64,000 nt of DNA, from contig JAQGDQ010000009.1 in NCBI GenBank assembly GCA_030141605.1, positions 620,001 through 684,000 on the forward strand, written 5' to 3'. The notes under the pieces are model-generated. The model was not told the origin of the DNA. It ran no database searches and worked only from the letters and a program-made list of their open reading frames with translations. Origin of the DNA: Tubiluchus corallicola (Eukaryota > Animalia > Priapulida). Positions 355-3,300 of the stretch are shown here, piece after piece (the stretch's first letter is position 1; each line of letters begins with the position of its first letter). The translations under genes and the position numbers were made by a program.

Positions 355-3300
355 CTTTTCCTGTTTCATCAAATCTACTGTAAGCTGCATTATTAAGCTT
401 TAGTGCACAACGTTGTAGAGGTAGCCAAGAGTAAGATTCAGGACATAAGAGATACGATGGTTTAAATCTGCCCTAGAAACAATGAATGGAAACAACTTAT
501 TTGTAATGTGAAAGATGAATCCTTGTCAACACATAGTACCAGTGTGTAGCCAAGAATAAGACTCAGGATATAAGAGATACAGTGGTTTAAATCTGTCCTA
601 GAAACAATGTATGGAAACAATTTATAGGCAATGTGAAAGATGAATCCCTGTCAATACTACCAACTTTTGTACCATATAATACCAACACTAACAACTTTAT
701 TATTTGAAAAATAGCAATTTATTATTTACAACAGTAATTACATTCTATCATTATAGATATGATCATCTTACCTTATATCTCATCTTTGGACAAGAATGTA
801 TGTAGTACCCCATGCAGTAGTATTTCATGTCCGGGTTACTTTGAACTAAGGAACGCACGAAAGCAGCTTCCCTGAAAAAAATTACAGGGGAATAATAACC
901 AGACATAACATTCAGGCGAAATAAAAATTCCAAAACATATGTATTAATTACCAAGGCATGAATCATACAAGCATAAAACACAAAGCATGTACACTGTTTC
1001 TCAAAGACAGACAGCGTCACAGATGTCAAAGTTTTAAATTTTTTAACAACAGGTGAATAAACAATAGATTTTGTCCAATATCAACTGACACAAAAAACCT
1101 ACCTTTAAATGGCAAAAGTTTGTCACAATCATACACACAACAACTTGTAAAAAATCAAAGTAATGACACACATACAACTTTAGTTGGATAAATGAAAAAA
1201 TAAAAGTAATGACACACACATATCAACTGATATTTGTACTAACCATACAAAAAGGCGATACATGTACATTTTTTGTCATTCAACTAAATTTACAGTAGAT
1301 AGAGCATCAAAGTCCTTAATAACTATCAACAAATGTTTTGCATTTCATACACTGCTGTAAAATATGACATTTTAATTGAACAGTACTAAAAACTACTTAC
1401 CTCAAAGCAGCGTATGTTCCTAATGATAAGAAACCATAATCGGGATCATAATACAGGTAAACAGAAGAAACGTAGTTTGGAAGAATATCTATCACTCCAA
1501 CAGCAATTAGTTTACCATCCAGCCAATATTGCTGATGAAATGATCCATATTCGTGTGCTGAGCTGCCATGTAGAAATTCACTCTACAATAAGAGTTTTAA
1601 ACAGCATTAAATTGCTTAAAAATTGAATAGCATGAGTTTAACCTCTCCGCATGATTGTTCTTTTAGAAAACAGTTTTGTATGAGCAATATGCAAAGAAAC
1701 CCACATTGTAATATAGCTAAATGTTTTCAAAGAGGATAGAGGATTTTCACATGGCACTGAATATTTACCATTACGTTATGACATACGCAAAATCGAAATT
1801 ATTACAATAAATGTGAAAATCTCGTGCCTGTGAAATATAGCACATTTAGCTGACTGGTTATACGAGAGTTACATAGAACTACAGACATTAGGGACACCTT
1901 ACAGGCCAATGCTCCATTCCAACAATAAGAGCAGGTGAAAGTAAGCTTAAGTTAGCAAGTTTCTGCCTTTTTAATTACAATAGTTGCGAAGCAAAAATAC
2001 CTGCAAAGGTGAATCTACCAGAAACTCGGTAAACATGCTCTTACTGCACTCAGACGGCTTGTCATTGTGGATTTTGATCTGATATTTTTGAAAAATGTCC
2101 AAAGATTTCAGAAAACTATCACGGAATTTTTCACTCCCGGGACTGGATCGAACAGTTGTTACCTGGAGAAAATTGCAGTGCAAAACTTCTAAATTGTGCT
2201 CACAAGATGGCGCAGCACCATGACGCAGAAGACAAGATTTGCTGTACAGATTTAATGACAACAATTTAGTGACACGACGAACTAGATGTTATATCATCCG
2301 TAGTCAACAGCAGCGCACTCACATAAATAACTGTAACGCTGGACGTATTTAACATAAGCTTACTCTCTCCGAGAAAACCAATGTTTAGAGACGATTTCGT
2401 ATAGTGTATTTCTACCTAATTTAACTTTTTTAAATGATGCTGCACCATTGCAGATATAGTTGAACTAATGCACTATGACTTTCTCCAGAGAACTTCACAT
2501 ATTAAATACAAATTACATTATTATACCTCTAGAGGTGAGTCAATCAAAAACCGCTGAAACTGTTTGCGTGTACACTTGTCTTCTGGGTCATGATGAATTG
2601 CCATTTGATACTTTTTATAAACATCGTACGTTTGTTCAAACGTTTCACAAAAATCTGATTGTTGATTTTCGGGTCTGGATCTAACTAGCTTTATCTGGAA
2701 TACGCAGCAAAGCGATGTAGTTACAATGAGATACTCAACGGCACTAAGTTTAAAATACCAGAAAGTTTTTCATTAGGCCGGCCACAAAAAAATTTGTTTC
2801 TGTCTTTCCTCATGAGCTCAAAAGATGCCAGTAGGGAGGGAAGAAATTTTTTTTCAGATTTCGTGAATGTTTAAAGTTAAATCGTGGAATATATAAAATC
2901 AGTTGAAATCAAAGATTGTTCATCTCCCACTAGTTAGCAGTAATGTTTTCAATTTTTTCAATGCATATTTTTCACACTCTGTTTTTTAGTTTTGTATTAC
3001 TAAATTATGATATAATTGTCGATTATTGTATTATCTCCTTTTTGTATCATGAACGTGTATGCTCTGATAATTATGGTATAAGCGGAAACACTACTTGGCT
3101 GTTAAATACATCGATTTGGCAGAAAATTCCATACTTTTTAGCCTCCAATACAATGAACATCATAGGAAATGGGAACCTTGGCCGAGAGTTAGCCGTGGAA
3201 AAACATTCCCGCATCCTGCGTTCCCCGAAAGAACGATTTTACAATAATTATTGCATTTTATGTTTTAAACTATAAAATATGCTTTTATATGACTGCATCA

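Follow-up and report, generated by a model that had tools for sequence, protein, structure and literature searches.

The ATE1 gene encodes the enzyme that tags proteins with arginine. In the window (the whole 64,000-nt stretch of DNA that we analysed), this gene carries two intact tandem exons, A and B, which are likely spliced singly and likely derive from one bilaterian duplication; based on sequence comparisons, we assign this reading a probability of roughly 0.7. The exon pair is a known event, present here in protostome-type form.

The ATE1 gene and its exon pair in the window

The window is animal DNA with 33% GC, and ATE1 occupies its minus strand at ~8720-355. The gene was identified by its ATE_C domain, its N-terminal zinc-binding cysteines, and its YQ..IH motif (human Y298, Q299, I302, H303); its N-terminal exons also align to named ATE1 proteins. 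Coordinates are collected in Table 1; the exon list resolves the stretch 5456-4095, which holds the middle exons, in part only.

Table 1. Positions in the window of ATE1 exons and of predicted RNA elements around the exon pair
Feature	Position	Strand	Remarks
ATE1 coding-exon span	355..8723	-	3' end near or beyond base 1
Other ATE1 exon	8644-8723	-
Other ATE1 exon	7513-7639	-
Upstream constitutive exon	3541..3630	-	90 nt, phase 0 donor, ends ...HRLE, equivalent of human exon 6 end
Exon A (first copy)	2527..2694	-	168 nt, 56 aa, 7a-type; Lys at diagnostic site
Exon A stretch (HDPEDK codons)	2575..2595	-	complementary to intron 2236-2216
Intron between exons A and B	2163..2526	-	364 nt, GT-AG
Element I1	2469..2489	-	predicted to be complementary to exon B acceptor
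Element I2	2434..2448	-	5' arm of predicted 15-bp helix with 2221-2207, -24.5 kcal/mol
Shared selector	2207..2236	-	predicted: 2236-2216 pairs with exon A body, 2221-2207 with I2
Exon B pyrimidine tract and AG	2162..2182	-	masked by I1 in predicted fold
Exon B (second copy)	2001..2162	-	162 nt, 54 aa, 7b-type; Glu at diagnostic site
Downstream constitutive exon	1401..1582	-	182 nt, ATE_C domain
Other ATE1 exon	772-871	-
Other ATE1 exon	355-472	-

An earlier note on this DNA had described an ATE1 pair of the 7A/7B type with longer exons than in mammals, and both halves of that reading were right. The exon coordinates, the flanking donor (3541), and the flanking acceptor (1582) lie where the note had placed them; AG precedes and GT follows both exons, the phases are 0-0, and frame 0 of each exon is free of stop codons. 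Inclusion of both exons does keep the frame, as had been proposed: the A+B join is open from exon 3630-3541 through exon 472-355, as are the A-only and B-only joins. The note had also claimed that one segment is encoded twice despite heavy nucleotide divergence, and we found the peptides identical at 21 of 54 residues and the DNA at 87 of 162 positions, with different codons at 11 of the 21 common residues. All 7 invariant columns of a 13-sequence alignment are kept in both exons, and both match Pfam ATE_C (E = 5.7e-6 for exon A; E = 4.1e-4 for exon B, which falls below the curated cut-off). Long purifying selection on both copies would leave such a pattern of conservation. Exons A and B lie next to each other, are homologous, agree in phase and nearly in length, and have canonical splice sites, all features by which tandem duplicates are recognized. 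Compared with the public gene models that contain long pairs, exon A carries a 2-codon insertion. Contigs from DNA run X1, which may be the source sample and hence not independent, match 2486-2760 and 2090-2269 with no differences; a search with exon B alone as the query returned no matches.

The 5' boundary of the window exons is the same as in vertebrates, and the 3' boundary lies 33 nt further on. The mammalian exon ends before FTRFLCSSPL, as the note had stated: human skip models (P0010, P0016, P0026) show FTRFLCSSPLE as a separate 11-residue unit. The window exons include these 11 codons, which deuterostomes hold as a separate shared exon (human exon 8). We refer to exons with these codons as long and to exons without them as short.

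Elsewhere in ATE1, a 125-bp tandem duplication at 421-654 (minus strand; 1.9 copies, 88% alike) copies the acceptor and first codons of exon 472-355. Its upstream copy starts at an AG near 598, has lost a conserved Cys, and runs into a stop codon; this copy is probably a young pseudo-exon. A 42-bp minisatellite at 6577-7407 (19.7 copies, 91% alike) lies in an ATE1 intron and is open on both strands. High-copy repeats occupy 2760-3400 and 3700-4200 in the ATE1 introns upstream of exon A, where summed X1 depth ranges from hundreds to ~1950, compared with ~2-9 around the exon pair. A Listerin (LTN1)-like multi-exon gene lies head-to-head with ATE1 at ~10600-31500 (plus strand), with a weak Ltn1_1st hit at 12834-13106 and a UBC_like domain at 31187-31501. 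Three tandem MFS_1 transporter genes, which we take to be of the monocarboxylate-transporter type, are located at 35780-60160 (minus strand), and a reverse-transcriptase fragment lies between two of them at 49811-50341 (plus strand).

Exon choice and predicted RNA helices in the 364-nt intron

Two long ATE1 copies are present in 8 of the 55 metagenome loci, among which L008 and L009 are nearly the same; each of the remaining loci has a single copy, lacks introns, is not from an animal, or is too short for a call. The intron separating the copies measures 49, 34, 43, 56, 34, and 47 nt in six loci (L001, L004, L010, L013, L014, L019), compared with 364 nt in the window. In two Blattella-like loci that hardly differ from each other, it reaches 1427 nt. 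At L011:1212-1370, also in a Blattella-like locus, exon B contains an in-frame stop codon in the YQ motif, possibly through loss of the B isoform or sequencing error. In C. elegans, the lower intron length for splicing is ~40 nt according to PMC4165533; introns of 34-56 nt are therefore at or near the splicing limit, and steric exclusion is likely the rule in those relatives, whose introns would be too short for double inclusion. The rule described there for C. elegans clusters with very short introns likely fits the six loci, whereas it cannot hold by length alone for the 364-nt intron of the window.

Folding of this intron on the sense strand is stronger than expected (z = -3.04, with none of 100 shuffles as strong; z = -2.41 on 30 shuffles) and is better than on the antisense strand (z = -2.01); it is also the strongest fold among 8 intronic stretches in the gene. 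Three predicted helices, which were picked after looking at several pairings and are based on one sequence, involve the intron. Helix 1 joins 2489-2469 to the exon B acceptor at -26.5 kcal/mol, compared with -12.2 ± 3.1 kcal/mol at acceptor-like sites, none of which (0 of 299) pairs as strongly. Helix 2 joins 2448-2434 to 2221-2207 through 15 pairs (-24.5 kcal/mol), and the best intron-internal duplex was equalled by 1 of 60 shuffles. Helix 3 joins 2236-2216 to 2595-2575 in the body of exon A, with 20 of 21 positions paired (-30.1 kcal/mol, a strength reached by none of 60 shuffles), and this match is the intron's best non-self BLAST hit across the whole window. Helices 2 and 3 overlap by 6 nt, so they compete with each other. 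Pairing of an intron element with the exon A acceptor ranged from -13.7 to -16.6 kcal/mol, and 29 of 299 and 26 of 478 null sites were as strong; the pairing of 2459-2440 with this acceptor (-16.6 kcal/mol) is weak.

When exon A was held unpaired in the fold, the clamp on exon B (helices 1 and 2) was fully formed in all three segments folded. With exon A free, the clamp mostly lost, being more than half formed in 2 of the 20 folded segments that start at 2694 or further upstream; forcing it under these conditions cost 0.3-5.8 kcal/mol. A span-limited fold contained no clamp. This folding behaviour fits a two-state switch tipped by exon A recognition, and helices 1 and 3 could coexist as a pseudoknot, a form that the folding program cannot model. 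To us, the chances that this intron holds a functional RNA switch appear evenly balanced.

In the mechanism that we propose, recognition of exon A would allow 2489-2469 and 2448-2434 to clamp the exon B acceptor region, and exon A would be used; alternatively, pairing of 2236-2216 with the body of exon A would break the inner clamp and mask exon A, and exon B would be used. Short introns may exclude double inclusion sterically in the relatives, with competing RNA helices replacing that role in the window, a proposal to which we give even odds.

The human 7a/7b pair analysed by Kalinina et al. (PMC7797038) involves the same gene, segment, and exon order. The topology that this paper describes for human R3-R4 is matched by predicted helix 1, in which a sequence in the intervening intron complements the second acceptor. 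Human R1-R3 pairs with the first acceptor, whereas the window counterpart is weak and predicted helix 3 targets the coding body of exon A instead. The window exons (168 and 162 nt) also differ from the human pair in that they include human exon 8. The search for an R2-R5-like element covered the 418-nt downstream intron. In L008, an insect-like locus, positions 2423-2435 and 3764-3776 form a perfect 13-bp helix over the exon A acceptor. We rejected this helix as a counterpart of R1-R3 because it is not significant (9 of 60 null draws) and has two changes in L011.

A rival reading that we consider somewhat improbable, yet serious, accepts that the pair is ancient and mutually exclusive and attributes the exclusion to splicing factors or to a branch point near the exon A donor, with the helices as inert relics of an inverted-repeat insertion. 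A yUnAy motif is indeed present 25 nt past the exon A donor; however, several AG dinucleotides lie within 40 nt of the exon B acceptor, leaving no AG-free zone for a distant branch point. The outer helix contains G-U pairs and A-C mismatches (two A-C), as in a decaying DNA inverted repeat, the clamp prediction varies with the segment folded, and L008, with its 1427-nt intron, lacks a significant acceptor helix; on the other hand, the window helices aim at functional targets, the exon B acceptor and the exon A body, each with no null draw as strong. The intron is also not high-copy in run X1, unlike the upstream intron. We found no match to it in the 55 metagenome loci and no second copy within the window. 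A transposon origin of the intron fold was rejected, as there is no second copy in the window or the loci, X1 depth is low, and no target-site duplication was visible by eye.

Long and short forms and the age of the pair

The long form is common and is not special to the window genome, since long pairs also occur in molluscs, insects, chelicerates, and crustaceans. We identified long pairs in 15 named protostome species and 9 more models that include both copies. The copies are spaced 51-54 residues apart in the 17 mollusc, insect, and horseshoe-crab models measured (both-copy models from the profile search) and 43 residues apart in 8-9 vertebrates and in Glandiceps, a hemichordate. The long form also occurs in crustaceans, a tick, a spider, and a midge, and sea spider isoforms differ through the tail. 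In the long public models of Tachypleus (P0006), Pinctada (P0125), Blattella (P0126), and Halocaridina (P0238), the boundaries, the A and B signatures, and the Arg/non-Arg split described below are as in the window. Public models that join both copies are probably prediction artefacts. In the crinoid Antedon, differences between isoforms X1 and X2 are confined to residues 230-272, which is the short form, and in two species of the sea urchin Diadema, the core differs and the tail is common; because these sequences differ in the core only, echinoderms are short. Judged from these gene models, the sampled protostomes commonly have the long pair, and the window contains the protostome-type form of the event, not the vertebrate form.

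A single duplication in the bilaterian ancestor, with the first copy corresponding to human 7a and the second to 7b, is highly probable from the sequences compared, and together with a later boundary shift it would be the best fit. The earlier note had offered an independent duplication of a longer exon as one explanation; this is not favoured, as profiles and trees both place exon A among the 7a-type exons and exon B among the 7b-type exons, the very tree outcome that the note had named as counting against independent origin. Profiles of the 43-residue core trained on 15 protostomes classed vertebrate 7a as A in 8 of 8 cases and 7b as B in 8 of 8, and they scored the window exons at +11.1 (A) and -10.1 (B) bits. 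Vertebrate profiles gave +21.1 and +1.7, and they found protostome B copies 7b-like in just 9 of 15 cases. Each window copy is nearer to one vertebrate exon than to its own neighbour, clearly for A and more weakly for B. All 31 first copies have Lys at the diagnostic site, and 30 of 31 second copies have Asp or Glu there. In a tree built from 44 long exons, A and B separated at 99/94, with one window copy on each side.

The core alignment has 43 columns and low resolving power. In a 76-row tree test, a clade uniting the deuterostome A and B copies was rejected (p-AU 0.0245), and one uniting all first copies was not (p-AU 0.339); a clade of window A+B, corresponding to a duplication private to the window lineage, was not formally rejected (p-AU 0.208 and 0.099). 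Parallel alignment of the window pair beat crossed alignment in 11 of 11 comparisons with deuterostome pairs and in only 19 of 24 with protostome pairs. The animal is an invertebrate bilaterian: its copies adjoin chelicerates in the core tree, a longer tree sets it outside 6 molluscs, without starred support, and molluscs rank first in tblastn. Glandiceps B (P0083) and Diadema B (P0379) fall among A copies in the trees; Diadema B scores A-like (+10), and parallel alignment prevails over crossed in only 13 of 25 Diadema comparisons. The placement of these ambulacrarian second copies may reflect gene conversion between exons or fresh duplication. A single-copy octocoral sequence scores on the B side (-17.3). 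The B signature is therefore partly ancestral, and it is the shared A state that carries the argument for common origin.

These groupings agree with the date of Bilateria given for the ATE1 tandem duplicated exon event in PMC8373072, where octopus is named as an example; PMC9741552 lists ATE1 among genes with tandem-exon events in human, fly, and nematode. The event of Martinez Gomez et al. (PMC8373072, PMC9741552) is the same as the window pair and has the same date. The available parts of these two papers mention neither the 33-nt difference in the boundary nor the Arg317 split and give no intron lengths, and their rule for common ancestry is identity of splice sites, from which the 3' boundary here departs. 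In PMC7797038, the vertebrate duplication is placed after the chordate radiation and a 7b homologue is said to be absent in invertebrates; the sequences compared here do not support that absence.

It is unlikely that a long exon was duplicated in the protostome ancestor and a short exon independently in deuterostomes (or once each in vertebrates and ambulacrarians), the first copies then converging on similar residues. Under a single duplication, the 33-nt difference in the 3' boundary needs further events; however, the 5' boundary is common to long and short pairs, and copy order is identical in every pair examined. Although a vertebrate-only 7a+7b clade was not rejected (p-AU 0.232) and Glandiceps A and B are sisters at 88/80, the test did reject the deuterostome A+B clade, the profiles cross-classified all 16 vertebrate exons correctly, and every first copy has Lys at the diagnostic site. 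Independent duplications would also sit well with the single segment in four amphioxus models, the post-radiation date for vertebrates (PMC7797038), and the frequent convergence of such exon events reported in PMC9741552.

With regard to which form is older, the earlier note had suggested an ancestral arrangement later modified in vertebrates. An ancestral arrangement with later modification fits, whereas modification in vertebrates alone does not, as a hemichordate, a crinoid, and a sea urchin have the short form too, making it deuterostome-wide. An intron at codon 43/44 was absent from the genomic loci inspected, including two-copy loci, the single-copy loci L016, L017, L007, and L029, the octocoral-like L025 (where the next intron is missing as well), and non-animal loci, which have introns at other places. 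Because this intron was not found in these loci, we lean toward an ancestral long pair that was later changed in deuterostomes; alternatively, a two-exon block may have been duplicated, with different losses afterward.

It is very improbable that this species has stopped using exon B or that it routinely includes both exons: the exon B branch is among the longest in the trees (1.25-1.31 changes per column), a helix is predicted to mask the exon B acceptor, joining A to B keeps the frame, and many public models join both copies, but exon B keeps its open frame, both splice sites, and 7 of 7 invariant residues, human double inclusion is almost absent (PMC7797038), and the 34-49 nt introns of relatives make splicing of both copies unlikely.

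Arg317 and the meaning of the pair

The alternative segment corresponds to residues 272-325 of human ATE1-2, against which the R317 numbering was checked. In PMC11283454, a fitted model, whose map did not place side chains, puts Y298, Q299, I302, H303, D305, E314, R317, and F318 near the first residues of the substrate and the tRNA end, with R317-F318 also at the dimer interface. Because the long form extends over 11 further codons, the Arg317 position falls inside the alternative exon. Deuterostomes encode it on the shared exon, with Arg in 9 of 9 tails. In long pairs, all 22 first copies have Arg and none of the 22 second copies does, the residue there being Glu (9), Gly (4), Asn (4), Asp (2), Gln, Ser, or His; the same split occurred in 9 of 9 further long models. 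Exon A of the window has the equivalent Arg (codon CGG, 2553-2551), and exon B has Glu (codon GAG, 2027-2025). The Arg rule is not absolute: of 59 Lys-type single hits, 9 lack Arg, and in yeast ATE1 the position is occupied by Ser. A literature search identified no R317 mutant of ATE1. The two window isoforms would plausibly differ in substrate pocket and dimer surface, with the likelihood near even, and isoform B may equally well have or lack an altered substrate preference or dimer state.

Our literature searches covered titles and the starts of abstracts, with subscription journals and bioRxiv supplements outside their scope; within these limits, they did not show a description of the long form or of the Arg317 split, nor one of ATE1 RNA structure in invertebrates, and they did not show the boundary shift or the predicted switch in print.

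In a tentative scenario that we consider doubtful as a whole, protostome-type animals would make two arginyltransferases that differ at Arg317, a residue fixed in deuterostomes on the shared exon. In the window lineage, a too-short intron would have grown and its own RNA switch taken over, with one arm masking the exon B acceptor, as in humans, and the other antisense to the coding sequence of exon A.

Published accounts disagree on the age of 7a/7b, which they place after the chordate radiation (PMC7797038) or in Bilateria (PMC8373072), and our results support the older date; they also indicate that the exon boundary moved between protostomes and deuterostomes. A small minigene of 1.2 kb would suit the question of whether RNA structure replaced steric exclusion after intron growth, and Arg versus non-Arg at position 317 offers a precise biochemical test of why two ATE1 isoforms persist.
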